Part shown: piece after piece, positions 40,377 through 62,775 of the stretch | Layout of the letters: each line of letters begins with the position of its first letter | Numbering within the stretch: position 1 is the first letter of the stretch | NCBI GenBank assembly: GCA_963765495.1 | Contig: CAVXWP010000004.1 | Span: forward strand, 32,001 to 96,000 | DNA: 64,000 bases | Source: Blastocatellia bacterium | Lineage (GTDB): Bacteria; Acidobacteriota; Blastocatellia; UBA7656 | Direction: 5' to 3' | Notes under the pieces: model-generated | The model's database searches: none | Told to the model about the DNA's origin: nothing | The model's input: only the letters and a program-made list of their open reading frames with translations | Made by a program: the position numbers and the translations under genes

Positions 40377-43300
40377 TTATCTATCTGTATTCACTACATT
40401 CGGTGGACAACTGCACGTGCTGTTTGTCGTGTCGTCATCCTTTATCGAACTTACTGTCAATCTCTTGTTCTGCACTATCGTAAGCGTCGCATCCCCCTTG
40501 TGCGTGCACGTGTTTATGTGCGCCTGCACCGTCTGGTTCCCCTGGTTATAGGTCAACGTTATATTGCAGTTAGACCTTGTGATAGATCCTCTGCCTGATA
40601 TCTGGAATCCATCGCTGCATCTCACAAACAGATAGTCTCCCGTAACCGAGTTGAAGACTATATAGCTCCCGTTCGTGTTGTCCTGTAAGCACACGTCGAA
40701 GACCGATACGGTAAAGCTACACGTTGCTGTGTTGCCTGCCGTGTCCGTCACCGTGCATACCACCGTAGTTGACCCCAGCGGGAACTCGCTTCCAGACGGC
40801 GGGTTGCACACTACGCTCGCCACTCCGCAGTTATCCGCTGTCACTGGCGGCGGGTAATTCACTACCACTCGCGGGTCACCCGGGTTCACCGTCGTAATAA
40901 TTATATTCGCCGGACAAGTGATCGTAGGCGGCACCTGATCTACTCCCAAAGTCGCTGCCTGCGATGTCGCCATCCCGCAAGTATTTGTGAACTTCGCTCG
41001 ATACCTGTTGTTTCTAACTGCTACCGTTGCCGTCACCGTCAACGGATTGCTCGTCGCGCCTCCTATGTTATTAAAGGTCGCCCCGTTGTCGGTTGACACC
41101 TGCCATTGTATCGTCGGCGCCGGGCTTCCCGACGCCGTTGAAGAGAAGTTCACTACATCTCCTACACAGGCTGTCACGCTCTGCGGATTTGTCAGCACAA
41201 CGGGCGTCGTGTTCACTGTCAACATCGCCGCGCTTGTCGGCGTCATACCGCACGTGTTTGTAAACACCGCCCGGTACTTGTTCCCGTTCATCGAGAAGTT
41301 CGCCGTAAACAATAGCGTTGTCGATGTCTCTCCGCTCAAGTTATTGAATGTCCCGCCTCCATCGGTTGAGACCTGCCACTGCACGGTCGGCGTCGGCGTT
41401 CCGTTTGCTGCTGCTGTAAACGTCACCTTGTCTCCCGCGCAGACGGTCTGCGTTTGCGGATTTTGCGTGATATCGGGCGCTCGATTTACAAACGTAGTCG
41501 CCGTCCCCGTGTTGTTACCCGGTGTCGGGTCCATTATGGTCGAGGCCGCCGTAGCAGAGTTTGTGATCGTCGTCCCTCCCGATGTTGCAGAGTTCACATT
41601 GACAACTACTGTGAAGGTCGCACTGTCTCCGTTCGAGCTTGTCGCCTTCGAGAAGACCACATTGCCGGTTCCTCCGACTGCCGGGGCCGATGTGCTCCAC
41701 CCCGACCCGGTCGTGACCGTAGCCGACACGAACGTGGCATTAGCTGGCACCGCGTCTGTCACTGTCACATTGAGACCGTCTCCCGGCCCGTTGTTCGAGT
41801 AGTTGATCGTGTAGGTGATATTGCTCCCAGCGCAGACAGGGTCAGGCGAATCACTCTTCGTCACCGCAAGATCGGCCTGTGCAAGCACGGTCGTCGTAGC
41901 GGTAGAAGAATTGTTGCCCGGTGTCGGGTCTGTCGTTGAGCTTGCAGCTGTCGCCGTGTTCGTCAGCGTCGTGTTGTGTGGAGTGTTGGCATTGACATTG
42001 ACAACGATTGTGAAGACGGCTGTTTCAGATCCGCCAACCGACGCCTTCGAGAATACGACATTGCCGGTCCCTCCAACTGCCGGGGCCGATGTGCTCCACC
42101 CCGAGCCTGTCGTGACCGTTGCCGACACGAACGTCGTGTTTGCGGGTACGGCATCGGTGACAGTCACTGAGTTAGCCGAACTCGGCCCGTTGTTTGTGAA
42201 GTTGATCGTGTAGGTGAGATTCTGGCTCGCTACCACCGGGTCAGGAGTGTCGGTCTTGACCACGGCGATGTCGGCCATCATCTGTACCGTCGTTGTTGCC
42301 GTAGCAGAGTTGTTGCCCGGTGTCGGATCTGTCGTAGCCGAGGCCGCTGTCGCCGTGTTTGTGATCGTAGCTCCGTCGGCCGTCGTCGAGTTGACCTTGA
42401 CAACCACAGTGAAGACGGCTGTTTCCCCTGCTGACACTGCGCCTTTAGAGAAGACCACGTTGCCGGTACCGCCAACTGCCGGGGCCGATGTGCTCCACCC
42501 CGAGCCTGTCGTAACTGTTGCCGATACAAACGTTGTGTTTGCTGGCACCGCGTCTGTGACGGTGACGGTCTGGGCATCTGAGGGGCCGTTGTTTGTGAAG
42601 TTTATCGTGTAGGTGATGTTATTTCCGGCTATCACTGGATCAGGCGAGTCGGTCTTTGTTACCGCAAGGTCTGCCATCGTTTGCACGGTAGTCGTCGCCG
42701 TCCCCGTGTTGTTGCCAGGCGTCGGATCACTTGTCGCGCTGGCTGCTGTCGCGCTGTTTGTGATCGTAGCGCCGTTTGCCGCGCTTGTATTGACTTTAAC
42801 TACCATCGTGAAGACGGCTGTTTCACCGGCGCTGACGGTGCTCTTTGAGAAGACTACGTTGCCTGTACCGCCGACTCCGGGCGCGCTGCTGCTCCACCCC
42901 GAGCCTGTCGTGACCGTTGCCGACACAAACGTCGTGTTTGCGGGTACGGCATCGGTGACAGTCACGGTCTGGGCATCTGAGGGACCGTTATTTGTGAAGT
43001 TTATCGTGTAGGTAATGTTGTTACCCGCAACCACAGGGTCTGGTGAGTCGGTCTTCGTAACGGCGAGGTCCGCGCTCGTCTGCACGGTAGTCGTCGCCGT
43101 TGCCGAATCGTTACCCGGCGTCGTGTCTGCCGTAGTGGCTGAGGTCGTCACCGTGTTTGTGATCGTCGATCCATTTGCCGTGCTTGCGTTTACCTTGACC
43201 ACAATAGTGAAGACGGCTGTCTCACCATTGGCGACCGTTGCCTTCGAAAATACAACGTTGCCGGTCCCGCCGACTGCCGGGGCCGATGTGCTCCACCCGC

Positions 43301-46300
43301 TGCCTGTCGTGACTGTTGCCGATACAAACGTCGTGTTTGCCGGAACCGCATCTGTGACAGCCACGGTTGTAGCCTGAGACGGGCCGTTGTTTGCGAAGTT
43401 TATCGTGTAAGTGATGTTGTTTCCGGCTATCACTGGATCAGGCGAATCACTCTTTGTAACGGCGAGGTCGGCCACTGCCTGAACGGTAGTCGTAGCCGTA
43501 GAAAAGTTATTGGCAGGAGTCGGGTCTGAGGTAGCCGAAGCCGCTGTCGCCGTGTTTGAAATAACAGTGCCGCCGGCTGTCGCGGAATTGACATTGACAA
43601 CCACAGTAAAGACGGCTGTTTCCCCTGCTGCAACTGTGCCTTTAGAGAAGACCACATTGCCGGTCCCACCGACTGCCGGGGCCGATGTGCTCCACCCCGA
43701 CCCGGTCGTGACCGTAGCCGATACGAACGTCGTGTTTGCTGGCACGGCATCGGTGACAGTTACGGTCTGGGCATCTGAGGGACCGTTGTTTGTGAAGTTT
43801 ATCGTGTAGGTGATGTTGTTACCTGCAACCACAGGATCAGGCGAGTCGGTCTTTGTAATGGCGAGGTCTGCGCTCGTCTGCACAGTGGTTGTCGCGGTTG
43901 CGGAATTGTTGCCCGGCGTCGGGTCTGTTGTAGCCGAAGCTGCCGTGGCCGTGTTTGTGATCGTAGCCCCGTTTGCAGTTGTGGCGTTAACCTTAACTAC
44001 AACAGTAAAGACAGCCGTCTCGCCTGCGGCTACCGTGGCCTTTGAGAATACAACGTTTCCGGTTCCACCGACTGCCGGGGCCGATGTGCTCCACCCCGAG
44101 CCTGTCGTGACCGTTGCCGACACAAACGTCGTGTTTGCGGGTACGGCATCGGTGACGGTGACGGTCTGGGCATCTGAGGGGCCGTTGTTTGTGAAATTTA
44201 TCGTATAGGTGATGTTCTGGCCTGCCGTCACAGGGTCTGGTGAATCGGTCTTTGTAACGGCAAGATCGGCCCTTGTCTGCACAGTCGTTGTCGCGGTCGC
44301 GCTGTTGTTGCCCGCTGTAGGATCGGTCGTAGCAGTCGCCGCCGTTGCGGTGTTGGTAATCGTCGTTGCGTCAGGTGTGCTTGCACCTACCTTGACAACC
44401 ACAGTAAAGACTGCCGTCTCGCCTGCCGCTACCGTCCCCTTCGAAAATACTACGTTGCCCGTACCGCCAACAGCCGGGGCCGATGTGCTCCACCCCGAGC
44501 CTGTCGTGACCGTTGCCGACACGAACGTTGTGTTTGCGGGTACGGCATCGGTGACAGTCACGGTCTGGGCATCTGAGGGGCCGTTGTTTGTGAAATTTAT
44601 CGTGTAGGTGATGTTGTTTCCGGCTATCACCGGGTCTGGCGAGTCGGTCTTTGTCACCGCAAGATCGGCTTCGGTTGCCACGGTAGTCGTTGCGGTCTTG
44701 GAATCATTGCCCGGTGTGGGATCAGCCGTAGATGAAGCCGCTGTCGCCGTGTTTGTGATCGTAGCCCCGTTTGCGGTGTTCGAGTTGACCTTTACTACCA
44801 CCTGGAATGTAGCCGTTTCGCCATTTGGCACACTACCCTTCGAGAAGACTACATTGCCCGTACCGCCAACGGCAGGCGCGCTTATACTCCACCCGCTGCC
44901 GGTTGTGACACTCGCTGATACGAATGTCGTGTTTGCGGGTACGGCATCTGTGACAGTAGCCGAGGTCGCGCTGCCCGGCCCGTTGTTTATAAAGCTGATG
45001 GTGTAGGTGATGTTGTTACCGGCAAGCACCGGGTCGGGGGCATCGGTCTTGCTGACAATTTCAAGATCGGCCTGCGCCTGAACGGTCGTCGTAGCAGTGC
45101 CGGTGTTATTGCCCTGCGTGCCGTCCGGTGTGTCGGAAGTGATAACGGCATTGTTTGTGACGATGGTGCCGCCCGGTGTGGCGTTGTCTACGTTGACGAC
45201 GAGAGTGAATGAAGCGGTCTCGGCGTTTGCGACGGTCGGCTTAGTGAACATTATAGTTCCGGTGCCGCCGACAGGGACCGAATCGACTCTGGTCCATCCA
45301 GCCGGAGTAGTGACCGAGACGAAAGTTGTATTTGCGGGAATCGCATCTGTAAGCACCGCGTTGTTTGCCGTGTCGGGCCCGTTGTTTATAGTGTTGATGG
45401 TGTAGGTGATGTTGCTGCCTGAGAAGACCGGGTCGGGCGTGTCAGTCTTTGTGACAGCCAGATCGGCCTGGGCAAGGGTTGTGCAGGTTGGATTGGCGGC
45501 CCCGGCTACATCGGGATCATCGGTTAGAACACTGATGGGGCCGTCGGCAGTGACCGTGCCCTGATTGCAGACCTGAGTCGTTCCGGGAGGAACCACCGGA
45601 GTGTTGATGGTGGCCTGGAACATTATCGTCACGCTCTCGCTCGGCGGGAGCGTGAACGGCCCGATACTGATCGAGCCGACAGCCGGAGCGTTTGGAGTCG
45701 CTTGCTGCTGACCGGTTGCCGCAGATGGACCGGCCGAACTAAAGGAAGCGGTTTCGACCGTCTCGGCTCTGATGCCCATCACGCTTACGTCTTGCGGGCG
45801 CGTGAAGACAGCGGGTCGCAAATCAGGAATCCGAGTTGCTGTCGTGGCATCTGCGGTTGCTGACAACTGCCGTAAATCATTCGATGTTGAGAGTTGACCC
45901 GAAGCCGCCACAGAAGGATTCTTTTGAATCGCCTCATCAGCAACTCCGACAGCATAGGCGGTTTCCACCTTGCCCGTTGCGGTCGACACGGTTGGAGCGG
46001 TCCATTTTGAGAGCGCATAGCCGACCGGCTCAACCACGCTTGTGATCGGGCCTACCTGCAATGTCGGCAGAGATTCAAGCACGTAAACAAAAGCCATGAG
46101 GGCATCGCCCGTGCTGATGGAGCCGGAAGATGTCGAAGTATTCCTTCCGCTCACCTTGGTTTCGGGCAGACGCCGCGTCCCCGTAGCAAGGGAAGTAGAG
46201 GTCAACGCATCCTGTCTTCTCTCGGCGCGCGGTTTGTCGTGGTCGAGCACAAACCCGAGCGCGTGCATGACAACCGTAAAGAGGTCCATGCGCTGATATG

Positions 46301-49300
46301 CCTGAGAAATTTCGCTCGCCTTGAGGTCATTTCCGTCCTGCGTCTCGAACTCCGTTTCATCATAAGGAGTCACATCTATAAACCAGCCGTAACCGGCGGC
46401 GCGGCGATCAATCACAACCTGCGTTGCCGTTGTGTAAGCCAGTTGACCGTCAGGCAGATCGTCTATATCGAAATTGACGGCTTCGAGCCGGGCAACGTCT
46501 TCGGCTGAAATGCCCATTGCCTTCCATCGCTCGATTGCTGCCGGGATGATCCACGGCAAATCGGATTTCTTCAGTTTGCCGAGTGATTTTCCGCCCGGTC
46601 CCTGCCCGCCTTCGGCCCAGAGCGTGTCATCGGTTGGACCCGCGACACTGTCGGGTTGTTCGCTCAAACTCTGCTGAGTTGTTTCTCCGGGATCGGCAAA
46701 GCTCGGCTGTACGCAGGTCGCAACTGCGGGAGGCAGTGTCGGGTTGCCCGCGACCAGAGTGATCGTCCCGGATGGCAGCACCGACGGGTTCCCGGTGTTG
46801 TCATCTTTTATCACCAGTGTCGCGGTGGCCGAGGCGGACCCTCCCCGCGAAAGATTAAACGTCCCGAAGGTCTGTAACAATACCACATCGGCCGCCGTCC
46901 CAAGCGTACCGCCCAGAGCATTTTTATCTGCTGACACCGATGAACTTCCTACCAGAACATTTAACGTGGTGGCATCGCCGGGCAGAGCGCCGGTCTCAAG
47001 AAAGAGGCCGGCTTCGGGAGTTCCCCCGCTCAAGGGATTGATCGTATTACCGAGGATCGTAGCATTCATCGTGCTGCTGCCCTCTGCGGGTCTGAGCAGC
47101 ATTCCATCGTTTATTACCTTATTAATTGTGTTGTTTTTGACCAGAACCGTGTGCACTCCTGTGCCGAGACTCCTGACTCGGATGCCCGTATCGCCTCCCG
47201 AGTTATTCACAGCCGTTACGCCTATGGTGTTGTTGATTATTGACCCGACGGCATTGCCGGCCCCATTTCCTTTAAAAACGTCGAGAGAAGTGCCTTTGGC
47301 ATCGCGGAAAGTGTTGCAGGAGATGTCATAGGTCATCGAGGCGGTGACACCGGGAGCGCCCCCGGAGGCGATCAATACGCCGCCGCCGCCGCTCAAGATA
47401 TTCGCGTGGTTGTTGCTGACCTTGTTCCTTCGAAAGATAAGGTCCATCGTCGAGTTCTGGTTAGCGGCTATATTGATAACATCGCCTTTGGCGCTCGTAA
47501 AGATGCTGTCAGAAACCGTGACATTTAGTGTGGCGCTGTTGAACGCCTCGACGTGGAAGCTGTCGTCTTCATTCCCCGATGCCTGCATCGCGTTTACGGT
47601 TGTGTTTGTAAAATTCAACCTGTTCAGGCTTCCGCTGTTTACGATGACGTTGACATTGAATTCATAGCCGCCGCTGATCGTGCAATTAGAAATCGTCGCG
47701 TTCCCGGTCAGGTCAGTAAACCGGATGGCGGCTTCATCAGACCCGCCGCCCGAGGTATTGTTGCCACTGTTTCCGCTGATGACCGAGTTGTCGAGCGTAA
47801 AGCCTGAAACCGTCGTGCCGCGTATGGCAAAGTTGCCAAAGTCGTTCAACTGCATCCGCGTAAAAGACGGGTTCGTGGTGCTGTTGAGGTAGATGCCGAT
47901 TCCGTTGGTCGTGCCGCCGTCTGCGCCTACCTGTGCCTTGTTTGCGATAGTTCCGCCCGATGCGGCAGTGCCGGTTCCGGTGACAGTCAGGCTGCCGGTC
48001 GAGCCTGTGGTGTCGAGGATTATGCCCGTGCTTGTCCCACCATTCGATGTGATGCTCTGGAACGTCATCCCGCTTACGCCTATCGTCGTGGAACTGACAT
48101 TCAAGGCCGTGCCCTGCCCTGAACTGATCGTGTTTACACTGCCTGTGACGTTTACGCCCACCGCGCCGCCTGTCGCGTTGAACCCGGTTCCAGTAGTCGT
48201 AGTGATCGCCAGTCCACCGTTTGAGAAGTTGATCGTCGCACCATTGGCCGTTCCATTAGTACTGAGAGTGACCGCTGCATTTGTGCCGGTGTTCAGGCTC
48301 TTGCTCAACCCGCTGAAGGTGATCGTCTTCGTAGCTACGGTGTTGTTGTTTTGAACGAGAATGCCCGTGCCCGTATCGGTGATGTTGCCGCTAAAGGTCA
48401 CCGACCCGCCCGTCGTGCTTGTGATCGACACCGAGCGATTGCTGGCGTTAGTGATGCTGCCGCCATAAGAGATCGTCGCGGCCCCGCCGTTTATGCTTGC
48501 CGCGATTCCCGTAGAGGTAGTGATCGAGCCGCCGGGGCTCGCAAAGCTTCCCGACGCGCTGTTGAATCTGATGCCTTCGGTAGAACTGCCCGAGGATGAA
48601 ACGCTCGTCAGAGCCAGTCCCATCGTTACGCTGTCGAGGTTTACGCCCTGCCCGCCGGTCGCGCTGATCGTCCCGCTGGTGGCATTGACCGTACCGCTCA
48701 CGGTCGCTACAAGCCCGGCTCCGGCTCCTGTCGTGATATTGAGCGACGTAAAGCCAACAGTTGCGGTTCCGTTACTGGCAAGATTTACGCCAGTCCCGGA
48801 CGCCGTTTTGTTTACGGTCGTTGCGCTAAAGCCGAATATCGAGGTTCCAAATGTGCTTTGAATGTCAATACCCGTAGTCGCAGGCGTCTGGATATTGGTT
48901 GTCCCGGTCACAGTGATGTTGCCAATACAACCCTGTGTCTTGATACCTTCGGCCGTGCTGTTTGTTGACGCAAGGCTTGTGAAATTCAAACCTGTTCCCA
49001 GATTCTCGCTGGTCAGATCGAGCGCCGCTCCGCCCGTTGCGTTTATCGTGCTTGAGCCTCCGACGCTCACTGTTCCCGCCGCGTTTGCGACTATGCCTCT
49101 GCCGCTTGCTGTCGTTATGCTGACTCCGCCCGTGAAACTGACTGTCGGGTTGCCGCCCGTAAGGATGATTCCGTCACCCGTTGTGCCTGTAGTCGTAGTC
49201 GTACCCGTAACGGTGAAGGTCCCGCCCGTGGCAGACGTCAGCCTCACGCCTCGCGTGCCGTTCGTAGATGAAAGGCTTTCAAAGGTTACTCCGAGCGTGC

Positions 49301-51205: not shown

Positions 51206-54200
51206 TCACTGGCAATTGCTATTCACCGTATAGGCCGGTCCATCGTCTATGGCCGGGTTACCGTTCTGGCTCTTGGGCACTGTGACTTTGCAAGTAGCTG
51301 TGGTCATATTGCCGGAAGAATCAGAAACTTTAAAAGTGATAGTGTAAACGCGGCCATTTCCTCCGCCTTCACGCTCAGCCCTGAGTTGCACCGATTTGCA
51401 GTTGGCGGCGATGACAATATCGTTGAGCGTATTTCCATCCCCACCACTGTTTTCCGGTTCGTCACTCGTGACCTTTGTAATCACTACATCATTTATACCA
51501 ATGGTAGGATCACATAGATCGCTGACGCTTGCGATACAGTCAGATACATTGACAGTATGGTACTTGTGATTTGCAGGCCATAGCGTGATCGGTTGCCCGA
51601 TGAGCGTGATCACTGGTGGCTGCACATCCTTGACCGTGATTGTGAAGCTGCAATTTGCCGAGCCTGCGATGTTGGTAGCTGTGCAGGTGACCGTAGTCGT
51701 TCCCACCGGGAATGAGCTTCCCGGCGGAGGCGTGCAAACAACGGTCGGCGCGGGGAATCCCGTGGTCGTCACGCTGTAGTTGACCACTGCCGAACATTGA
51801 CCCGACGCGGCATTCACAGTTATTGGACCGGGACAGGTAATGGTCGGCGCAGTGTTTACAGTGGTCGTGGCCGTAGCCGTGTTGTTTGCTGAATTTGGGT
51901 CGGGTGTGCTGCTTGCGGCTGTGACGGTATTGCTGATGATCGTGCCGCCCGCCGTAGCCGAGTTGACGTTGACAACTATCTGGAAAACAGCCGTCTCGCC
52001 GTTTGCTGTTGACGCCTTCGAGAAGACGACGTTTCCGGTCCCACCTACAGACGGCGCGCTCACGCTCCACCCGGTTCCTGTAACTACCGATGCGGAGACA
52101 AACGTTGTGTTTGCCGGAACCGCGTCCGTCACCGTCACGTTTGTGGCATTGCCTGCGCCGTTGTTTACGAAGTTGATCGTGTAAGTGATGTTCTGACCCG
52201 CTGCAACCGGATCGGGCGAATCACTCTTTGTGACCGCAAGATCGGCCTGAGCTACGACGGTGGTCGTGGCCGTAGCCGTGTTGTTCGCACCATTCGGGTC
52301 GGGCGTATCGCTTGCCGCCGTTGCCGTGTTTGTTATGGTAGCGCCGTTTGCTGTGCCGGTATCCACCTTCACAACTATCTGGAAGACAGCCGTCTCGCCG
52401 TTTGCTACCGATGCTTTCGAGAAGACGACATTGCCGGTCCCACCTACGGAGGGCGCGCTCACGCCCCACCCGGTTCCTGTAACTACCGATGCAGAGACAA
52501 ATGTTGTATTTGCCGGAACCGCATCTGTCACCGTCACATTTGAGGCGCTGCTCGGCCCGTTATTTGAGAGGTTTATAGTGTATGTGATGTTGTCTCCGGC
52601 AAAGACCGGATCGGGCGAATCACTCTTTGTGATGCTCAAGTCCGTGTTGTCGAGAGTTGTGCAGGTAGGATCATTTGGCGCGGCCGTATCGGGGTCATCG
52701 GTCACGATGCTGCTGAAGTTGCTCCCCGAAACCGTCGCCTGATTGCACACCTGGGTAGTTCCCGGCGGCAAAACGGGTGAGTTGATCGTCACCTGGAACA
52801 TCACGGTGACGCTTTCGCCTGCGGGCAGGCTCGGAATATTGACAGTCACGGTTTCGCCCGACAGTGCGCTGCTGCTGATGCTCGCTCGTTTCACCTTCGC
52901 GCGATAAGCGGGCTGCGTATTCAGGGTCAAAGGCTGCACCACCCTTATGCCGTTTACAGCCACGTCACGCGGACTTGTTACGGCAAACCCGGAGGAATCC
53001 GACGATTGCTGTGCAACCGCTGTCGTTGAAGCATAGCTTGTCGGCAAGAAGGATACCGGCTGTTGCGAGATCACCTCTCCGACCAGACCTGCGGGCAATT
53101 GAGTCTCAACCTTGCCGGTCTTTGCTTCCGTCGTGCGGCGCACACCGGCAGGCAAGGTGTTTCTCATCAATCTGCCGCGATCCGTCTTGATACTGGTCTT
53201 GTCGTGTTTCAGCACGTAACCTAATTCGCGAGTCACGACGGTCAATAAATCTACGCGCTTATAGGCCTGGCTGGTCTCATCGGCGCGCAACTGACCGCCT
53301 TCGGGAATCCCAAATTCAAGATCATCTTCGGGCGTCGTATCTATAAACCAGCCGTATCCCGCGCCGTTCTTATCAAGAGTTATGCGCGACGGCGTAGCCG
53401 TTGCCAGAACTCCATCGGGGAGATTCGCGATGTCGAATGTAACCGCTTCGAGGCGGGCCGCTTCGTCGGAAGAGATCCCCTCGGCTTTCCACTTCGCTAT
53501 TGCGGCAGGAATGACCCAGGGAAGGTCGGAGTCCTTCAGCTTCTTTGTGCCTTTTCCGCCCGGTCCTTTGCCGCCCTCTGCAAATAGAGTGTCTTCCTGT
53601 GCGGCAGAATCTCCCGGCGAGATGCTAGCAAGGCTCGGCGTCGGACACGCGGCACCGCCTACGAAACCGCCTCCGCTCCCGCTTGGGAAAGCGGACCCGT
53701 CAACGCCCGCCGAGTTGTTCGATTGTACGAATGCGACAACAGCGGCCGAATCCAGAGGCGAGCCCGCGTAGCCCGGAAGTCGCACGGTCGTATCTACGTT
53801 CTGAAACAGATAGAAATCATCATCGGTGAACGGACCGCTGCCGGTCATGTTGTTCTTGTCTGCCGCGCTTGTTCCCCCTATGACCGCACAGACGAAATTT
53901 GTATCGGGCGGTGTGGGCAGGGCTCCCGAATCCAGGAAGATTCCGGTGAAGGCAAACGCGCCCGGCTCGGCTATCGTATTGCCGGTGATAGTGGCATTGA
54001 GCGAGCTGCTGCCTTCGGCGGCACGCAACAGAATGCCCGCTTCGTTGTATTGCCGGATGCTGTTGCCCGTCACAGCCACTGTGTGCGACCCAGTTCCGAG
54101 GCTTATGAGTTGAATGCCTGTGGCTTCGGATGAGCCTGAATCGGCAACACCGGACACGCCTATTGTGTTGTTATCAATAGTGCCTTCGAAGCTTCCTCCT

Positions 54201-56533
54201 CCAGACAATTTTGAGACGTTCAAAGCGGTCCCTTTCGCGTCTCGGAAACTGTTGTTTGAAATTTCGTAGGTCACGTTTATGTTGGAGCCTGTGCCGCCGC
54301 CGACAAACAATGCGCCCCCGCCTCCACTCAAGATCGCGGGATGATTGTTCGACAGTGCGTTGCCGGTAAACAGGATATCCATCGAGGAATTATTTAGCGC
54401 GGTCGTGCTTATCAGATCGCTCCTCGCGCTGGTGAAGAAGCTGTTCATCACCGTGAGATTCAACACGGCGGCGCTCGAAGCCTCTATAAACAATCCGTCT
54501 TCTCCTGACAAAGTGCTGTTTGCGCCGATGGTTGTATTGGTGAGCGTCAGCCTGTCGAGTATGCCTGTGCTGTTTGTAACCCTGACGTTGTCTTTGAATC
54601 CGCCGCTGATGTTGCTGTTAAAGATCAGGGCGCTTCCGACCAGGTTACTGAAGCTTATGCTGCCTTCGCTATCGGCAACCGAATCGCCGTTCACTCCGTT
54701 GATGATGCTTGCGATCAGATTGAAGCCGTTGACGGTTGATCCTCGAATGGCGAAATTGCTGAAGTTGTTTAGCTGCATGGAAGTTAGCGTGACCGCCTGC
54801 GCGTTTGAGAGAAAGACTCCCGAACCTGTGGTCGCGCCGTTTGCGCCCGTCATGTTCTGTATGGTTCCGCCTGAACCGTTGGCCAGCCCCGATCCGTCGC
54901 CGCTGACGGTGAAGCCGCCGGTTGTGTTGCTCAAGATGATACCGTTAGATCCTCCGCTTGCAGAAACGCTGCCAAGCGCGACGGCGAGCGGCGTCGTGCC
55001 GGTCGTTTGCGAGATATCGACGGCGACCGCGTTGCTTGTGCTGATCGCGCCGCCCGCTATGCTTATGCTGCCCGAAGCGGCGATGCTATTTGTGGCGTGC
55101 AATCCGCGCTGACCCGCATCGGGCGTGATCGAGAGACTGCCAAAGGTGACATTGCCGGTGTTGTTATCGAGCCTGACGCCTGTGCTGCCTGAACTGCTTG
55201 CGGTAGTACTGCCGCCGAAGCCGAAAGCGGTCCCGGTATTGTTCTGCAATAACAGCCCGTTGCCGGACGGGTTTGTAATGGTGGTTGGGCCGCTTACTGC
55301 AAACGACCCGCCGCCGCTGCCGGTCACTCTGACGCCCACGCCGCCGTTTGTAGATGAAAGAGTTCCCAAAGAGACGCTCAAGGTTCCGGCCCCTTGGATA
55401 TCTATGGCCGCGCCTCCCGTAGAACTGGCATTCACTGTATCAATCGTCAGGCTACCGACCGACGATCCGGCGATGCCTGCTCCGCCGCCCTGCCCGTCGG
55501 CATTCAAACCGCGAACGGTGTTGTCCGTCGAGAGAGTGACGCCGTTGCCGGCGGCATTCGTGATCTGGGGAGAACTCGTAGAAGTCACAAGCGTCTGGCT
55601 GTTGACGACAAGGTTTACTCCCTGCCCTATCAGCCGCTGATTCGCCTCAAGTTCCAGGCCACCTCCATACGGGCCGCTGCCCTGGAAAACGAATATGATG
55701 TGACCGGGACTGTCGGCATCGCCTGCGCCTCCCGCTCCGTTGACGGGTGCGAGGCTGTTGAAAGGCGAAAACGAACGGCCATCGCCGTTTGTCGCCTGCG
55801 AATTGTCCACGTACCAGACCATCTCGCTTATGGTTATTGATACTGTAGCCGTATCGGTTTTTGAACCGTCGCTCAAGGTATAGGTAAAAGTGTCTGTCGT
55901 ATTGGTGACACCAACGGGCGGATCATAGGTAAAGCTGCCGTCCCCAGTGTTCACCGAAACGTTGCCGCCCAGCGTGCTCGTTGCATCGAAAGCGGTTATC
56001 GAAATGGTATCGCCATCTGGGTCCGAATCGTTTGCAAGCACCCCGTTCACCGCGTTTATAGTGAATCGCGTATTACCAATTGCGTTCGCATACGCATCGT
56101 CTACGGCCAGGGGCGACGTGTTGAGCGACCCGCTCACAAGGGTCGTGTTCGGGTCAATGGTATCGCTCAGGACTACTCCCGTAGCATCCATGCTTCCGCT
56201 GTTGGTGATTGTGACGCTATACATCAGGGTATCACCGGGATCGGCATTATTATCGCCGTCATTGTCAACAGCGAGCGCATCGGTCTTTGTGGCTGTGACG
56301 AGTGGGGCGAGAAGGCTGTTTGTACCGAATGTTTTTACAAGCTCACTTCCCCGCCGGGCCGAAGCGATATTTGATAGCGGTTGAGCCGTCTTTGCCGGCT
56401 CGGGGGCGAATTCGCCTGGTGATGAGTAGGCCGGTCTGCGTAAAAAGCTGGGCAACGCGATCAGACAGACCAGAACCGTTATGGTCAGCAACAGGCGGAC
56501 CAGGAACTTATTAGCTCGAATTCTCTCTTTCAT
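51206..56533 (-). CDS. Large (1775 aa) secreted paralog of the giant protein, with 2 DUF11 repeats, HYR and a different C-terminal domain
   Basis: Same N-terminal order (TATK.DAL..D...ADPGDTLMY, Ig, WYVDN beta-helix, GYGWFIDxTP domain); C-terminus LWPANHKY...VTSDEPE...QLRAER.G.GNGRVYTITF. Confidence 0.9.
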   Translation of the reverse strand: MKERIRANKFLVRLLLTITVLVCLIALPSFLRRPAYSSPGEFAPEPAKTAQPLSNIASARRGSELVKTFGTNSLLAPLVTATKTDALAVDNDGDNNADPGDTLMYSVTITNSGSMDATGVVLSDTIDPNTTLVSGSLNTSPLAVDDAYANAIGNTRFTINAVNGVLANDSDPDGDTISITAFDATSTLGGNVSVNTGDGSFTYDPPVGVTNTTDTFTYTLSDGSKTDTATVSITISEMVWYVDNSQATNGDGRSFSPFNSLAPVNGAGGAGDADSPGHIIFVFQGSGPYGGGLELEANQRLIGQGVNLVVNSQTLVTSTSSPQITNAAGNGVTLSTDNTVRGLNADGQGGGAGIAGSSVGSLTIDTVNASSTGGAAIDIQGAGTLSVSLGTLSSTNGGVGVRVTGSGGGSFAVSGPTTITNPSGNGLLLQNNTGTAFGFGGSTTASSSGSTGVRLDNNTGNVTFGSLSITPDAGQRGLHATNSIAASGSISIAGGAISTSNAVAVDISQTTGTTPLAVALGSVSASGGSNGIILSNTTGGFTVSGDGSGLANGSGGTIQNMTGANGATTGSGVFLSNAQAVTLTSMQLNNFSNFAIRGSTVNGFNLIASIINGVNGDSVADSEGSISFSNLVGSALIFNSNISGGFKDNVRVTNSTGILDRLTLTNTTIGANSTLSGEDGLFIEASSAAVLNLTVMNSFFTSARSDLISTTALNNSSMDILFTGNALSNNHPAILSGGGGALFVGGGTGSNINVTYEISNNSFRDAKGTALNVSKLSGGGSFEGTIDNNTIGVSGVADSGSSEATGIQLISLGTGSHTVAVTGNSIRQYNEAGILLRAAEGSSSLNATITGNTIAEPGAFAFTGIFLDSGALPTPPDTNFVCAVIGGTSAADKNNMTGSGPFTDDDFYLFQNVDTTVRLPGYAGSPLDSAAVVAFVQSNNSAGVDGSAFPSGSGGGFVGGAACPTPSLASISPGDSAAQEDTLFAEGGKGPGGKGTKKLKDSDLPWVIPAAIAKWKAEGISSDEAARLEAVTFDIANLPDGVLATATPSRITLDKNGAGYGWFIDTTPEDDLEFGIPEGGQLRADETSQAYKRVDLLTVVTRELGYVLKHDKTSIKTDRGRLMRNTLPAGVRRTTEAKTGKVETQLPAGLVGEVISQQPVSFLPTSYASTTAVAQQSSDSSGFAVTSPRDVAVNGIRVVQPLTLNTQPAYRAKVKRASISSSALSGETVTVNIPSLPAGESVTVMFQVTINSPVLPPGTTQVCNQATVSGSNFSSIVTDDPDTAAPNDPTCTTLDNTDLSITKSDSPDPVFAGDNITYTINLSNNGPSSASNVTVTDAVPANTTFVSASVVTGTGWGVSAPSVGGTGNVVFSKASVANGETAVFQIVVKVDTGTANGATITNTATAASDTPDPNGANNTATATTTVVAQADLAVTKSDSPDPVAAGQNITYTINFVNNGAGNATNVTVTDAVPANTTFVSASVVTGTGWSVSAPSVGGTGNVVFSKASTANGETAVFQIVVNVNSATAGGTIISNTVTAASSTPDPNSANNTATATTTVNTAPTITCPGPITVNAASGQCSAVVNYSVTTTGFPAPTVVCTPPPGSSFPVGTTTVTCTATNIAGSANCSFTITVKDVQPPVITLIGQPITLWPANHKYHTVNVSDCIASVSDLCDPTIGINDVVITKVTSDEPENSGGDGNTLNDIVIAANCKSVQLRAEREGGGNGRVYTITFKVSDSSGNMTTATCKVTVPKSQNGNPAIDDGPAYTVNSNCQ

Positions 56534-57101: not shown

Positions 57102-57626
57102 CTAGGTTCTGGGTGGGAACACTCCCTGAAGAGCTATACAAAAGTAAAAAGTAAGGTACGGCTGCATATTGTTATGGGGCTGGTCGCCGCCCGACGGAGC
57201 TATCGCATTGTCAGACATGCTCACTGTAGGAGTGAGTGTCGTCGAGTAGGCGTTTCCACCCTGCGACCTTGTCAGGTTGACGGCTGAACTCGGCGTGGTG
57301 ACGCTTGCCGAGATAGCGCCCGTATTAAGAGCATGGCTGTGCGCGGGCATCTCGGATTCGAGCAGCGATACCGTCTCCGACCCGCCCGTCTCGCCCAGAT
57401 CGTGAAGCGATAATCCCGGCCCCTGGCCCGGGTGCATCGCCGCCCTGCCCTGCAAATCGGGGAGGGCAAAATTTGATTTGCCGTTGCCTCCATAAGTCGT
57501 CCCGAGCAGCGAGAAGAGAGCCGTGTTCTGGCTGAGCGGCAACAACTGCCCGTCGCACCAGGCCCAGCCTTTTGGCGCGAAGTTGAAAGGAAATATTCTG
57601 ATTTCAGCTACAAACGGATCCGCCAT
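57102..57626 (-). CDS. Phage tail collar domain protein (microcystin-dependent-protein-like), paralog 3
   Basis: PFVAEIRIFPFNFAPKGWAWCDGQLLPLSQNTALFSLLGTTYGG.G...FALPDL.GR; MPAHSH; HNNMQPYL...CIALQGVFP. Confidence 0.92.
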   Translation of the reverse strand: MADPFVAEIRIFPFNFAPKGWAWCDGQLLPLSQNTALFSLLGTTYGGNGKSNFALPDLQGRAAMHPGQGPGLSLHDLGETGGSETVSLLESEMPAHSHALNTGAISASVTTPSSAVNLTRSQGGNAYSTTLTPTVSMSDNAIAPSGGDQPHNNMQPYLTFYFCIALQGVFPPRT

Positions 57627-57732: not shown

Positions 57733-58236
57733 TCATGTGGGCGACGGGAAAATCCCGAACAGTGAGATGATATAGTTTATGCACAGATAGGGCTGAAAGT
57801 TAGTGTGCGGCTGGCTGCCGCCTGTTGACGTAATCGCGCTTGCCGCTGCGGGGATAGTCGGCGATATTACTCTATAGAGAGTTACCGAAGGCGACTGCGA
57901 TACCACATTATTTGTCGGATCGGCCACCGAGCCGATATTTTGGGTAGCCAGGTAGGGGTGAGAGTGCGCCGGCATCTGATTGACTGTAAGAGTCACTTCT
58001 TCCACACCACCCGATTCTGCCAGTATGAACCCGTTCCCCTGATGCACCGGAATCCGGCCTCGCAGATCGGGAAGAGCAAAGGTGCTCTGTCCATCCCCGC
58101 CGTAGGTAGTTCCTATGAGATTGAATAGAGTCTCATTCTCACTTATGGGGAGCAATTGTCCTTCGCAAAACATCCAGCCTGCCGGCGCGAAGTTGCCGGC
58201 GAACATTCTGATTTCACCTACATAAGGTTGCGCCAT
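57733..58236 (-). CDS. Phage tail collar domain protein, paralog 2
   Basis: PYVGEIRMFAGNFAPAGWMFCEGQLL...LIGTTYGGDGQSTFALPDLRGR; MPAHSH; H.N.QPYLCINYIISLFGIFPS. Confidence 0.92.
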   Translation of the reverse strand: MAQPYVGEIRMFAGNFAPAGWMFCEGQLLPISENETLFNLIGTTYGGDGQSTFALPDLRGRIPVHQGNGFILAESGGVEEVTLTVNQMPAHSHPYLATQNIGSVADPTNNVVSQSPSVTLYRVISPTIPAAASAITSTGGSQPHTNFQPYLCINYIISLFGIFPSPT

Positions 58237-58246
58237 ATTTTCCTCC

Positions 58247-58744
58247 TTAGTTGGGCGATGGGAAGATACCTTGAAGAGCTATACAGAAACTGAGCGTCAA
58301 AAACGGCATCATATTTAAATGGGCCTGACTGCCGCCGATATTCCCGACGGTCGTTGAATTCAGAGCCGTCAAGGCAGAAGCCGAATTGTAGACGTTATTT
58401 GCTTTTGCCAGAAGAGCGTTGGTGGCAACGGGCACACCTCCATCGCTTGTCGTGGCCTGCGCCGTATGTACATGGGTCGGGAGTTCGGATATAGAGAGCG
58501 TGTGCGCCTGCTCTCCTCCGCGCTCTCCGAGCGTGTGTCCCGAGCCTACGTGTATAGGCACGCGGGAACGCAGATCGGGCAGGGCGAAGTTCACACGCCC
58601 GTCGCCACCAAAGGTCGTCCCCAGCAGCGAAAACAACGCCTGGTTCTGATTGATAGGCAATAGCTGCCCGTCGCACAGCGCCCATCCCTTGGGTGCGAAC
58701 ACAAAGCTCATGATTCTGATTTCAGACAGAAAAGGTTCCGCCAT
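58247..58744 (-). CDS. Phage tail collar domain protein, paralog 1
   Basis: PFLSEIRIMSFVFAPKGWALCDGQLLPINQNQALFSLLGTTFGGDG..NFALPDLR; LPTHVH; HLNMMPFL...CIALQGIFPS. Start at ATG 58744 behind AAGGAGG. Confidence 0.92.
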   Translation of the reverse strand: MAEPFLSEIRIMSFVFAPKGWALCDGQLLPINQNQALFSLLGTTFGGDGRVNFALPDLRSRVPIHVGSGHTLGERGGEQAHTLSISELPTHVHTAQATTSDGGVPVATNALLAKANNVYNSASALTALNSTTVGNIGGSQAHLNMMPFLTLSFCIALQGIFPSPN

Positions 58745-58933: not shown

Positions 58934-58962
58934 ATTCTATAGCTAAGTAATTTCCATGTCAA
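58934..58962 (-). promoter_or_regulatory. sigma70 promoter of the tail-collar operon
   Basis: Minus strand TTGACA-17 bp-TAGAAT. Confidence 0.7.
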
Positions 58963-59131: not shown

Positions 59132-59602
59132 ATGTCAATTTCACGAAGAAGTTTTCTAATAAAAGGATCAATGGCAGGTCTTTCCTCCGCGCTCTTTCTG
59201 AGCGTCACCACAAACGCCTTCGGACAAAGAGGTCGGACCAGAGACGATAAGGCTGGATTTCCTATTCCAAAAGATGTCGAACACGATCCGCTCAACGCTC
59301 TCACCATGGAGATGTTTGCCAAGAATAAGTACTCGAAGTTCTACATCCACGTGAATGACTCAACGGTTGTGGAAATGGAGTTGATCGAAATCACGGAGGG
59401 ACCTTCCGAGCAAAGCGATTTGCTCGAAGGCTTCATGCTGGGATTCCACACCCACGGGGAAAAGACCGTCGGGCAAGGAACCTACAAGATAAAACATGGA
59501 AAGTTGGGAGAGTTCGAGATGTTTCTGGTCCCAAGCTACTGGGATATGTACGGAGTGGATTACGTAGCAGTATTCAATCGCTTGCGCCCTTCCGGCAAAT
59601 AA
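59132..59602 (+). CDS. DUF6916-like protein with twin-arginine (Tat) signal peptide
   Basis: MSISRRSFLIKG + hydrophobic stretch + NAFG; C-terminal F.L.F...QGTY..KH..LG.F..FLVP...Y.AVFN. Confidence 0.82.
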   Translation: MSISRRSFLIKGSMAGLSSALFLSVTTNAFGQRGRTRDDKAGFPIPKDVEHDPLNALTMEMFAKNKYSKFYIHVNDSTVVEMELIEITEGPSEQSDLLEGFMLGFHTHGEKTVGQGTYKIKHGKLGEFEMFLVPSYWDMYGVDYVAVFNRLRPSGK

Positions 59603-59770: not shown

Positions 59771-60298
59771 TTAGCCCGTCGAATCGGCGACCTCTTGCCC
59801 GCTTTTGTCTGAATTCCATTCCATTTGAAAACTCGCTCCATATTCGCCTATCTGCGTAAAACCCAATCGCTCAAAAAGGTGGAGGGCCGGGCTAAAGCTT
59901 TCGACATAGATGCGAACGGGGCGACCCGACGCCTCGGCTTCGGCCATCAGTTCTTTGATGAGCGGAGTCCCAATACCGCGATTGCGATACGCAAGCAGCA
60001 GAGAGATGTCGAGTATGCGAATCTCTCCTTCGCCTTTTGCAAGATAAAGGCGTCCGACCGGAGTTTGATCCAGCATTATTACCCGCAGGTCCGCGTATGG
60101 GAACTTCATCAGGTAGAAATCCTGTTGAGCCTTGAACTGCAACTTCAGAAAGGCTTCGCGCTGCGCGTCATTCCAGGGTACGACGGATAATTCCTCGATC
60201 CGCGTACTGGCGTAAACATCAAGCAAAAAGGCTTCATCGTCGGGTTTGATCGGGCGGGTGGTCACTGACATAGAATTTTCGCGCATGGATTGATCCAT
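59771..60298 (-). CDS. GNAT family N-acetyltransferase (tail-collar-associated type)
   Basis: DEAFL..VYASTR.EEL...W...QREAFLKLQF.AQ...Y...P; PVGRLY; ILDISLL..YRNRGIGT; LFERLGF. Confidence 0.9.
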   Translation of the reverse strand: MDQSMRENSMSVTTRPIKPDDEAFLLDVYASTRIEELSVVPWNDAQREAFLKLQFKAQQDFYLMKFPYADLRVIMLDQTPVGRLYLAKGEGEIRILDISLLLAYRNRGIGTPLIKELMAEAEASGRPVRIYVESFSPALHLFERLGFTQIGEYGASFQMEWNSDKSGQEVADSTG

Positions 60299-60327
60299 CC
60301 CATATTAATCTATTTAATCTGCTCTAT

Positions 60328-60627
60328 TTAATCTTCGGGCGGATTGTTAAAGATCGCCTGGTAATAGAGCCCCTTCCCGTCCTTGCGAATAGGGACCAGA
60401 AACAGGTCGTGCGAGCCGACCTCGTCGTGCTCGATTCTGTAGACGCCCTGAGCAGGCGGCGAATCCTGTGGGGCACAAAACACGAGTGAAAACTGATCGT
60501 CTCCGTGCGGGCCGACCTCTTTTACTTCGACCAGTTCGATTTCGCGCGCTTCGGACCCTTGATGCTGCATACTGAATTTGGCGTTTATGTGTCCGTCAAA
60601 CGTAGCTTTTTTCAGGGTGTCAGACAT
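60328..60627 (-). CDS. DUF6916-like protein, no signal peptide
   Basis: IELVEV...FSLVF....QGVYRIEH..VG...LFLVPI.....YYQAIFN. Confidence 0.85.
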   Translation of the reverse strand: MSDTLKKATFDGHINAKFSMQHQGSEAREIELVEVKEVGPHGDDQFSLVFCAPQDSPPAQGVYRIEHDEVGSHDLFLVPIRKDGKGLYYQAIFNNPPED

Positions 60628-60729: not shown

Positions 60730-61200
60730 TCAGGTATCGGGAAACCATTTCATCTCGAAATGGGTATCGTTTTCGTCAACCCGCGCAAAACCCAGCCGCT
60801 CGTAGAGGCGAAGGGCAGAATTTGTCTTTTCCACGTGCAGCAGGACGGGTTTACCTGTCTTGCGGGCTTCGTCCTGCAAATCCCGAATCAAACCGCTGCC
60901 AACTCCCCCGCCTTGATGTTTCGGCAGCAGGGCTATATCGACAAGCAGAATTTCACGATCATTTCTTAAGACGTAGAGCCTGCCGATCTTTTCGCCGTCA
61001 AGGATGATGATATGGTGGTCAGCGCCCTTGAACTGACGTTTGTAATGGCCGGTTCTGGCCGTAAATTGCATCTTCAGAAACATCTCGCGCTGGGCGTCGG
61101 CCCATCCCCAGGTAGCCATCTCCTGATTGCGCGTGCTGGCATACAACTCATACAGGAATGCCTCGTCCTCTGTACCGGCAGGCCGCAAAGTTACAGGCAT
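60730..61200 (-). CDS. GNAT family N-acetyltransferase (tail-collar-associated type), second paralog
   Basis: LRPA...DEAFLYELYASTR..E...W...QREMFLKMQF.AR...Y; IGRLYV; LVDIALLPKHQGGGVGS; LYERLGF. Confidence 0.9.
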   Translation of the reverse strand: MPVTLRPAGTEDEAFLYELYASTRNQEMATWGWADAQREMFLKMQFTARTGHYKRQFKGADHHIIILDGEKIGRLYVLRNDREILLVDIALLPKHQGGGVGSGLIRDLQDEARKTGKPVLLHVEKTNSALRLYERLGFARVDENDTHFEMKWFPDT

Positions 61201-61262
61201 ATAAACATTCGTCCTCAAGAGCAAATAAAGATTCCGTGTTCTTCGTTATATATGGATTGAAG

Positions 61263-61342
61263 ATGGTATTTTTTCGGCGAAGAGATGTCAAGCCAGCCGG
61301 TCAAATAAGATTATTGACTTCTTATTTGTCCAGGAGTAATGT
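61263..61342. promoter_or_regulatory. Divergent sigma70 promoter pair (GNAT/DUF6916 operon and the 61720 gene)
   Basis: Minus strand TTGACA(61291-86)-17-TACCAT; plus strand TTGACT(61314-19)-17-TAATGT. Confidence 0.55.
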
Positions 61343-61719: not shown

Positions 61720-62775
61720 ATGACCAAGAAGCCTGTAAAGCACAGTAAGGCTCTAATTGCACTCGAAGTAGCTCTGATGGGATTGTTATGTTGGGCGGTT
61801 TTGTCGAGCAATCTTACCAACCAGCCGGGCAATACCGTTCAAGCCGGAAATTCGGAAATAAATGCAATCTCGGGACAGAAGCAGAGGCACGTGCCACCAG
61901 AAGGAACTCCTAGGAAAAAATCCAGGGATATCATAGCCCAGCTCGGCACCCCGGGCGCCTGCTCTGAATTCGATTTTCAGAACGGCGCTCAGGGGTTCAC
62001 GACGCAAATGGTATCGGGCACGCAATTGTGGCACATTGCAAACGGCACCTGCCGCGCAAACCTTGCCGGACACACAACGCCCTTCACCTTCTATTATGGT
62101 CAGGAGGGAACCTGTAATTACAACACGGGTGCCCGGAACGCTGCGAACCTGATCTCTCCCTCAATCAGCCTCTCGGGGCTATTCCCTCCCTACACGATAG
62201 GCTTTAACTACCTGTTATTTGTGGAGAGCAGCAGTAGCTTCGACACGACCTTCGTTGATCTTTCGACCGACGGCGGCGCGACCTGGACGCCTGTGCTCAG
62301 CAAAGCCAATATGTTTAATGACAATCAGTGGCACAATATAGGGACCGACGTGACGGCAGTCATAGGCGGGGCGACTTCGATCAATTTGCGCTTCAGGTTC
62401 GATTCCGTCGATAACCTCGTCAACAGTTCGACCGGCTGGCACGTGGATGATGTTCTGGTCTGCGGCAATCCATTCGATGTTTGCGTACAGGATGACACTA
62501 ACGGGAACATACTGCAATTCAATTCACAGAGTGGAAACTACATCTTTACGCAGTGCAGCAACGGCACAACTATTACGGGGACAGGCACGGTAACGACCAG
62601 CGGATGCTTTATCACGCTGGTGCATAACCTGGCCAGTATGCGGCTTTCGGCAACTGTAAATACCTGCCAGAGCACCGGCAACGCAACCTTGTCTATGAGC
62701 ATACCGCGCGGGGTTAAGATATTGACTATCAAAGACACGGACACTACAAACAACACCTGTACCTGTCCTTTGTGA
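61720..62775 (+). CDS. Secreted protein with MAM/jelly-roll-like domain and Cys-rich C-terminal domain
   Basis: N-terminal TM/signal; LISPSISL...VDLSTDGGATW...LRFRFDS...GWHVDDV; C-terminal FDVCVQDD...TTNNTCTCP. AAGGAG RBS. Confidence 0.85.
   Translation: MTKKPVKHSKALIALEVALMGLLCWAVLSSNLTNQPGNTVQAGNSEINAISGQKQRHVPPEGTPRKKSRDIIAQLGTPGACSEFDFQNGAQGFTTQMVSGTQLWHIANGTCRANLAGHTTPFTFYYGQEGTCNYNTGARNAANLISPSISLSGLFPPYTIGFNYLLFVESSSSFDTTFVDLSTDGGATWTPVLSKANMFNDNQWHNIGTDVTAVIGGATSINLRFRFDSVDNLVNSSTGWHVDDVLVCGNPFDVCVQDDTNGNILQFNSQSGNYIFTQCSNGTTITGTGTVTTSGCFITLVHNLASMRLSATVNTCQSTGNATLSMSIPRGVKILTIKDTDTTNNTCTCPL

Follow-up and report, generated by a model that had tools for sequence, protein, structure and literature searches.

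Collar-protein triplets beside giant surface proteins: a recurrent non-phage gene cassette in a Blastocatellia bacterium

What do three different phage-type collar proteins do in a stretch of bacterial DNA that carries no capsid and no baseplate gene? The question is raised by a locus at positions 40377 to 62775 of a 64,000-nucleotide stretch from a Blastocatellia bacterium (GenBank assembly GCA_963765495.1, contig CAVXWP010000004.1, positions 32,001 to 96,000 of the forward strand); the whole stretch is referred to here as the window. A preliminary description of this DNA had pointed to three collar paralogs (COL1, COL2 and COL3), which are co-oriented with and upstream of two paralogous giant proteins (GIANT1 and GIANT2), to a GNAT-DUF6916-GNAT group and to a second DUF6916 protein with a twin-arginine translocation (Tat) signal. 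All of these genes were found in place, and their families were confirmed with Pfam. Our analysis strongly supports the view that the locus is the local copy of a widespread cellular, non-phage cassette. The same degree of support holds for its core, in which three paralogs of a phage tail-fibre tip (collar plus head), encoded in fixed order, are joined by one or two GNATs, by one or two DUF6916 proteins of beta-barrel type and by a giant surface protein that contains a beta-helix module. The cassette probably builds the binding tip of a cell-surface fibre.

The genes on the minus strand follow each other from right to left in the order GNATa, leaderless DUF6916, GNATb, COL1, COL2, COL3, GIANT2 and GIANT1. 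The collar proteins match the Pfam family Collar (PF07484, cut-off 24 bits) with 93.4 bits (COL1, 58247..58744, 165 aa from the likely ATG start; the open frame, 58247-58819, extends to a TTG at 58819), 102.6 bits (COL2, 57733..58236, 167 aa) and 94.0 bits (COL3, 57102..57626, 174 aa). None of the three has a signal peptide. GNATa (60730..61224, 164 aa from a TTG, with an ATG eight codons in) and GNATb (59771..60298, 175 aa) match PF00583 with 44.0 and 34.5 bits (cut-off 20.7). Between them lies the short, leaderless DUF6916 protein (60328..60627, 99 aa), a predicted six-stranded beta-barrel with 86.7 bits to PF21880 (cut-off 27). The gene of the Tat-signal DUF6916 protein (59132..59602, plus strand, 156 aa, 59.2 bits) is divergent from the collar genes. 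NCBIfam holds no model for the collar or DUF6916 proteins, and the GNATs give only sub-threshold RimI-like matches there. The genome (7.3 Mb, 17 contigs) carries just these three Collar and two DUF6916 genes. The absence of phage genes that had been noticed before stood up in profile scans: no capsid, sheath, tube, baseplate, integrase, terminase or lysis family was found in 12 + 34 = 46 open reading frames (ORFs) of the window.

The cassette is common among relatives of this bacterium. In 41 related genomes Collar was found in 26, DUF6916 in 26 and both in 25; in 22 of these 25 the two lie no more than 3 kb apart. All 20 kin loci contain DUF6916 and GNAT genes, and in 19 of them a co-oriented ORF of at least 800 amino acids occurs within three genes of the collars. 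When 201 Acidobacteriota genomes were sampled evenly, Collar matches above the cut-off came up in 28 of them and DUF6916 in 21. In this sample DUF6916 is found within 5 kb of 18 of the 19 collar triplets (the exception is genome G220). Seen from the side of DUF6916, 18 of the 21 genomes have the gene beside a triplet and one beside a collar gene at a contig end; in one of the remaining two it is 17 kb away from a pair of collar genes at a contig start, and the other has no Collar match.

The same arrangement occurs across phyla. A pattern search with COL2 in one genome per species gave at least 612 matching stretches. The best 80, together with the window and the 20 kin loci, form the set of 101 loci used throughout. 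Genes in these loci were called with a simple greedy procedure; many of the records are metagenome bins, and several loci stop at contig ends. The 80 loci come from Acidobacteriota, Pseudomonadota, Chloroflexota, Bacteroidota, Actinomycetota, Verrucomicrobiota, Planctomycetota and Bacillota. At least three collar ORFs occur in 62 of them and two in the other 18, while DUF6916 is present in 65, GNAT in 66 and both in 63; collar triplets with GNAT and DUF6916 do recur outside phages, as had been claimed. An ORF of at least 800 amino acids lies within three genes of the collars in 64 of the 80 loci and is co-oriented with them in 58. In the background, ORFs more than three genes away reach this length in only 34 of 474 cases (7%). 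All four parts (collars, DUF6916, GNAT and giant) are together in 50 loci. Nine loci have no long ORF at all, and five of the nine are at most 8.1 kb long. The other neighbours are unrelated between loci: 479 ORFs fell into 422 clusters with 386 singletons, and the 36 clusters that recur consist of transporters, regulators and metabolic enzymes, with no phage family among them. These statistics link the collars to giant proteins and not to genes of phages or extracellular contractile injection systems (eCIS).

The cassette also occurs on large replicons listed as plasmids, where 81 of 72,556 records match it; 71 of the 81 are typed as non-mobilizable. Annotation of Aminobacter aminovorans pAA01 and of the megaplasmid of Ruegeria sp. 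TM1040 lists a giant, three 'tail fiber protein' genes, a hypothetical protein and a GNAT, as well as a small convergent hypothetical protein. Alphaproteobacterial loci L031, L058, L065, L101 (13071-14555) and L102 (10126-11343) have an additional hypothetical protein of 405-494 amino acids, with no Pfam family, between COL3 and GNAT. In the literature outside subscription journals we found no published account of the cassette and no paper that names DUF6916; the papers found there on COG4675, PF07484 and 'microcystin-dependent protein' do not describe the cassette either. The use of a phage fibre tip by cells is widespread and, so far, apparently undescribed.

How could such a cassette work? 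The best overall explanation, whose chances in our view fall just short of even, is that a cellular cassette produces a 1:1:1 collar trimer, which is exported and forms a recognition tip with the helix of the giant. COL1, COL2 and COL3 would assemble in equal numbers; the conserved scaffold of the collars, together with an HxH metal site, would stabilise the trimer, and their three different, fast-evolving head loops would form a ligand-binding face, which probably binds glycans. The trimer presumably folds in the cytoplasm, because no collar gene encodes a leader. In this genome the Tat-signal DUF6916 protein might then carry the trimer out of the cell as a hitchhiker. The leaderless DUF6916 protein and the GNATs could act before export, either by acetylating the trimer or by handing it over. 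Outside the cell, the trimer and the beta-helix region of the giants would constitute the recognition tip of a surface fibre. Together, the results confirm what the preliminary description had observed and partly support its interpretation, which holds in outline; the parts that DUF6916 (as chaperone or export carrier), the GNATs and the giants may play in the mechanism are suggested by gene linkage, the Tat signal and the leaderless collars.

The first step to be weighed is export. The 156-aa DUF6916 protein starts with MSISRRSFLIK and a hydrophobic stretch, a textbook twin-arginine signal that bears out the Tat tag assigned to it earlier. The motif SRRSFLIK is followed by GSMAGLSSALFLSVTTNAFG, and the protein shows the features of a Tat substrate (S/T-R-R-x-F-L-K, a hydrophobic region and a cleavage site with small residues). 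Tat-type DUF6916 proteins with an xSRRxFL motif occur in 36 of the 101 loci, namely in 14 of the 20 kin loci, in 21 of the 80 others and in the window. The Tat pathway exports folded, oligomeric proteins and can carry leaderless partners, as in the Escherichia coli pairs HybO/HybC and DmsA/DmsB; piggy-back transport of a pre-assembled trimer is thus the simplest reading for this genome. The likeness to these hitchhikers lies in a small twin-arginine partner beside leaderless proteins that oligomerise and bind metal. The difference is that most cassettes have no Tat form, and that a partnership of DUF6916 and collars is suggested here by their genes. Since the Tat-type protein is missing from most loci, and DUF6916 altogether from Paenibacillus eucommiae, Tat export cannot be the general route. 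All Bacteroidota loci have the leaderless DUF6916 only, so that the trimer there either takes another export route or acts inside the cell.

The latter idea can be extended to all hosts of the cassette. Collar trimer, GNAT and leaderless DUF6916 could act intracellularly, for example as a holdase, a quality control factor or a regulator for the giant before its secretion, with the Tat-signal DUF6916 as a side branch that has its own periplasmic role. We regard this as unlikely, even though a number of observations would fit: a hydrophobic leader was detected in none of 288 separately encoded collar ORFs, 65 of the 101 loci have no Tat-type DUF6916, and GNATs require acetyl-CoA. It would also fit that pairwise distances of DUF6916 and GNAT proteins co-vary (r 0.41, with 0 of 2000 permutations as high), a correlation that may merely reflect shared host ancestry. 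However, fused triple collars with N-terminal leaders and PEP-CTERM tails exist (13 of 32 have a leader according to a simple heuristic), and these point to the outside of the cell. The hypervariable head loops resemble a receptor-binding face, and all known functional relatives bind ligands on cell surfaces; this is the case for T4 gp12 and gp37. It is also the case for the collar trimer of a virophage (PMC12724248). In addition, a collar protein is reported from the exoproteome of Ruegeria pomeroyi (PMC4949626).

The short DUF6916 protein was modelled as a six-stranded beta-barrel with a short N-terminal helix (predicted local distance difference test, pLDDT, 88.7). Foldseek gave no match for this model at E <= 0.001 against the PDB or viral models, and a search of the Atlas returned DUF6916 clusters only. 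The best match in a structure comparison was the YcgR-N domain, a barrel of the PilZ/YcgR-N kind, with Z 8.5, a root-mean-square deviation of 2.7 over 85 residues and 7% identity; typical best Z values are 7-8. The family is large, with 10,374 representatives (clusters at 50% identity) at E <= 0.001 among 1.84 billion. The best 150 of these are nearly all about 100 aa or about 140-190 aa long, and a search for fused forms of 281-2000 aa gave none, though this counts as weak evidence. Both GNATs retain the acetyl-CoA loop (QGGGVG and RNRGIG; motif Q/R-x-x-G-x-G/A). Their nearest solved relatives are N-terminal acetyltransferases and RimI (best 6wqb, E 2.3e-7), and with 34.5 and 26.5 bits they stay below the cut-off of 86.4 of the RimI equivalog TIGR01575. 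An acyltransferase encoded next to a giant exported protein is reminiscent of HlyC and the RTX toxin HlyA; the enzymes of the window, however, match Acetyltransf_1, _7 and _10 and no HlyC family at E values up to 0.01. A toxin-antitoxin reading of the GNAT and its small neighbour was rejected, given that DUF6916 also has Tat-signal forms and is a beta-barrel.

Does the giant protein belong to the same system? Besides its beta-helix module, GIANT2 (51206..56533, minus strand, 1775 aa) has a leader, an N-terminal module with DUF11-like and Big_9/Cadherin_5 domains, 3 DUF11 repeats, a HYR domain and a stretch that resembles a degenerate metzincin. GIANT1 (40377..50462, minus strand, 3361 aa) carries a hydrophobic leader at the N-terminus and a Cys-rich domain of about 100 aa at the C-terminus; it also contains a beta-helix module, 11 DUF11 repeats and domains of the Ig/I-set and HYR types. 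The two are paralogous: 52% of the first 260 residues are identical, and 45% of those in the helix module. The preliminary description had taken them for giant beta-helix adhesins. This holds for one right-handed beta-helix module in each, but according to Pfam the proteins consist mainly of DUF11, Ig and HYR repeats. The module occupies residues 236-880 of GIANT2 (53894..55828, minus strand) and about 646-1168 of GIANT1. AlphaFold2 modelled the GIANT2 segment, from an alignment of 18 sequences, as a long all-strand right-handed beta-helix (pLDDT 89.3). All Foldseek matches listed for it are beta-helix proteins (polysaccharide lyases, Ag43, PfbA and tailspikes). The likeness to such surface proteins and tailspikes is in the predicted fold; the matches are weak (best E 4.5e-4, template-modelling score at most 0.33 on the query), and the module has no Pfam family. 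Residues 236-1297 of GIANT2, searched alone against Pfam, gave nothing above a cut-off.

It is this module that the giants of different phyla have in common. Homologs of its 645 residues were found in giants of Acidobacteriota, Chloroflexota, Pseudomonadota and Actinomycetota. The giant lies downstream of the collars in most loci of Acidobacteriota, Chloroflexota and Bacteroidota, and upstream of them in 16/16 Pseudomonadota and 6/6 Actinomycetota loci that have one. In downstream giants the module is located at residues ~230-1170, in upstream giants within the last 100-800 residues; it is always encoded at the collar-proximal end of the giant, while the repeats on the far side vary between loci. 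This constant position is the best argument that trimer and giant work together, a cooperation that gene linkage suggests. Beyond the helix module of GIANT2 (52300-53300, minus strand), and in the equivalent region of GIANT1, we also noticed a motif GWFxDxTP, with a metzincin-like stretch DLLTV..(H/R)E..(H/Y) about 30-40 residues past it; the motif is present in 13 of 77 giants. An intact HExxH occurs only in a giant of Verrucomicrobia (L023), and it is degenerate in both giants of the window.

A different explanation is that Collar, GNAT and DUF6916 are self-contained, for example as a secreted lectin or a bacteriocin-like binder with its modifying or immunity enzyme, and that the module merely tends to adjoin giant adhesin genes in variable islands of surface proteins. 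The giants do differ widely in their repeats and secretion signals. Export and anchoring signals are typical of the lineage, with a C-terminal domain of the type IX secretion system in Flavobacterium and Dyadobacter and SLH domains in Paenibacillus; RTX repeats are found in giants of Sphingomonas and of one Solirubrobacterales bin. No giant is within three genes of the collars in 16 of the 80 loci, and where one is, it stands on the opposite strand in 6 of 64 loci; the same is true in Ruegeria sp. TM1040. Furthermore, collar distances do not significantly track those of the helix module (r 0.24, with 160 of 2000 permutations as high). Nevertheless we consider this explanation decidedly unlikely. 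The co-oriented giant in 58 of 80 loci stands against the 7% of long ORFs in the background, one specific helix module is common to the giants and always faces the collars, and Paenibacillus keeps collars and giant but has neither GNAT nor DUF6916.

The next question is whether the collar proteins form one mixed trimer or three separate ones. All begin 5-7 residues before the collar domain and have no long N-terminal shaft. Their residues H91 and H93 do not vary in 15 sequences. The pair lines up with the HxH of a long tail fibre from a phage (chain 8kec_A) and is a predicted metal site. In T4 gp12 and gp37, histidines of this kind bind a metal ion that lies on the three-fold axis. The majority residue has a share of 0.85-0.96 in the scaffold (residues 1-93 and from 137 onwards) and of 0.39-0.51 in the loop region 94-136. 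With this invariant frame and variable tip the proteins resemble a receptor-binding protein. They share the Collar domain and the HxH motif with the fibre tips of T4 (gp12 and gp37; PDB 1OCY, 5IV5) and of another phage (8KEC). However, the tips of the phages are homotrimeric and have long N-terminal shafts anchored to a baseplate, whereas the window has three distinct shaftless genes, less than 60% identical to phage records, and no baseplate genes. For Solibacter, a genome paper of 2011 describes positive selection among its collar paralogs (PMC3174227).

In the window the three paralogs are 45-50% identical to one another. Across phyla, the mean column identity within one paralog is much higher (COL1 74%, COL2 72% and COL3 77%), and each paralog has its own invariant residues. 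Each collar ORF was typed as COL1, COL2 or COL3 according to which of them it matched best, and 66 of the 101 loci then showed the order 1-2-3; the others mostly have a partial order, and '213' occurs in 6. Nature has also fused these units. In total, 1698 proteins of 294-2000 aa match COL2 at E <= 1e-10, and the best 120 of them include, by domain hits, 36 with two units, 32 with three, 8 with four or five and 44 with six fragments, which correspond to three head-less units. Counting full units only, different types are joined in 37 of 38 two-unit fusions, and one unit of each type is present in 20 of 29 three-unit fusions, 19 of which are ordered 2-1-3. The head-less triple collars (P0014, P0068 and 42 others) are circularly permuted, with the C-terminal strand first, and many have a leader and a PEP-CTERM tail. 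Fixed order, deep conservation of each paralog and fusions thus lend indirect support to the heterotrimer that the preliminary description had proposed, and a COL1:COL2:COL3 trimer of 1:1:1 is the best reading of all three.

A viral precedent exists. In the virophage DSLV2, three consecutive collar proteins co-purify via one tagged subunit as a single band of ~55 kDa, and this heterotrimer binds Synechococcus lipopolysaccharide (PMC12724248). Both systems have three consecutive, co-oriented small Collar genes with orthology by position, and a collar scaffold with a variable head. The virophage proteins differ in that they are longer (196-247 aa), viral and encoded next to capsid genes, while the triplet of the window has a cellular context in which GNAT and DUF6916 genes and a giant surface protein are its neighbours. 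Alternatively, the three paralogs may form three separate homotrimers with differing specificities, which we judge to be quite improbable. The phage relatives T4 gp12 and gp37 are homotrimeric, phage records are mostly single-copy and some kin have one collar gene (a single Collar match in four kin genomes). One homotrimer was also stable in simulation in the virophage study (PMC12724248). On the other hand, three separate homotrimers would not lead one to expect exactly one gene per type in a fixed order in two thirds of the loci (66/101), fusions that join unlike types, or residues that are invariant for one paralog across phyla.

Did the locus come with a phage? COL2 relatives were detected in 458 of 50,697 phage records, at 500 places in all, and most carry the annotation minor tail protein. 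All of them are less than 60% identical, with 37.9% as the best value among the matches listed, while the collar proteins of the window share 58-81% identity with their cellular orthologs from other phyla. It is hardly credible that the locus is a decayed remnant of a prophage, tailocin or eCIS: the Collar family is best known from phage fibres, but no phage family occurs in the window or among the 36 recurrent neighbour clusters, identity to phage matches listed is so low, and the cassette is kept with intact frames in at least eight phyla. Outside phages, small proteins with a Collar domain are also known as COG4675, with MdpB/MrpB of Microcystis and RhiB of Rhizobium leguminosarum; RhiB is reported to carry a Collar domain (PMC13133039). 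RhiB differs from the present case in that its quorum-sensing operon rhiABC has one collar gene. Collar relatives bear public names such as 'microcystin-dependent protein' and 'tail fiber protein'.

A quick-search tree built from the concatenated collars of 74 loci shows complete interleaving of the phyla: it requires 33 label changes compared to 34.6 after shuffling, and there are well-supported sister pairs from different phyla. This fits a horizontal spread of the collars, to which metagenome bins and paralogy could contribute as apparent signal. Because the phyla are interleaved and collar distances are uncoupled from those of DUF6916 (r 0.09) and GNAT (r 0.02), the collar genes may move between phyla apart from the rest.

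Several of these observations weigh against a single exported trimer that works with the giant. The lack of coupling between collars and either DUF6916 or GNAT is one of them, and the insignificant correlation with the helix module is another. The loci without a giant, the majority without a Tat-type DUF6916 and the purely leaderless forms of Bacteroidota belong here as well, as does Paenibacillus eucommiae, which has collars and giant but no DUF6916 in the whole genome and no GNAT. The 80 cross-phylum loci are the closest relatives of COL2 and not a random sample of Collar. A wide structure comparison of DUF6916 produced only generic small barrels, with the YcgR-N match in the range of chance, so that the fold gives no function. 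As to the trimer itself, 9 of the 29 triple fusions have another composition of types. Finally, two loci (L019 and L020, from genomes G003 and G015) have just one collar gene, with 49-50% identity to COL3, although nothing else is missing from the cassette, which implies that a homotrimer can do the job.

The locus has further features of its own. The sigma-70-like promoter that had been reported above the collars was recovered as TTGACA-17-TAGAAT (58934..58962, minus strand), 190 nt upstream of the COL1 ATG. No other site in the 64 kb of the window matches at 11/12 positions; when the 5.4-kb region was resampled 200 times with a Markov model, 3.5% of the resamplings contained a match of this quality. 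A second promoter-like site, TTGACA-17-TACCAT (61263..61291, minus strand, 10/12), is upstream of GNATa. The gap of 568 nt between COL3 and GIANT2 (56534-57101) opens with a 15-nt inverted repeat, the arms of which are ~60 nt apart. It shows no similarity to any of the other 100 loci and contains no Rfam family. A separate promoter for the giants, or an attenuator, may be located there. Directly downstream of GIANT1 lies a stand-alone HNH endonuclease ORF (39563-40111, minus strand), the sole mobile-element-like gene near the locus.

At the other end, outside the conserved cassette, a secreted protein of 351 aa (61720..62775, plus strand) has the same Cys-rich C-terminal domain as GIANT1. This domain of ~100 aa (FDVC.QD.TNG ... 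C.CP; 62473-62772 on the plus strand in the 351-aa protein, 40377-40700 on the minus strand in GIANT1) occurs at 15 places in the genome, mostly at the ends of frames of 365-3380 aa. It has no Pfam family and may serve for sorting or anchoring in this particular lineage. Housekeeping genes make up the remainder of the window, with a his operon, ribonucleotide reductase, RNase PH, tmRNA and others. The tmRNA gene (29346-29703, plus strand), the only Rfam match in the window, scores 156.6 bits, and the his operon contains a HisD-HisC fusion in which histidinol dehydrogenase and a class I/II aminotransferase share a single frame of 822 aa (35743-38211, plus strand). The stretch of the locus is also present in one DNA run of a soil metagenome; no RNA run is listed.

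What could the cassette mean beyond this genome? Proteins of the COG4675/MdpB/RhiB type are common in soil and water bacteria and have no assigned function. Such proteins are reported from soil metaproteomes (PMC5579227). The conserved association of collars and DUF6916 in one cassette with a giant beta-helix adhesin leads to definite hypotheses, namely a heterotrimeric, lectin-like tip, piggy-back export by Tat and a dedicated acetylation. Culturable hosts of the cassette include Ruegeria sp. TM1040, Aminobacter aminovorans, Dyadobacter fermentans and Flavobacterium phragmitis. The most far-reaching reading, which as a conjunction of all its parts we can offer only as a tentative and somewhat doubtful one, is that a domesticated phage fibre tip has become part of a cellular organelle in many phyla, a horizontally exchangeable 'recognition cartridge' for surface fibres. 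It would be an obligate A-B-C heterotrimer, pre-assembled in the cytoplasm and with a hypervariable binding face; it would be matured by a dedicated acetyltransferase and DUF6916 and exported in the folded state, by Tat piggy-back where a Tat-signal DUF6916 exists. The trimer would then be mounted on the beta-helix of the giant as a swappable specificity module. If true, this would be a clear case in which cells have reused a receptor-binding module of phages for their own surface biology.

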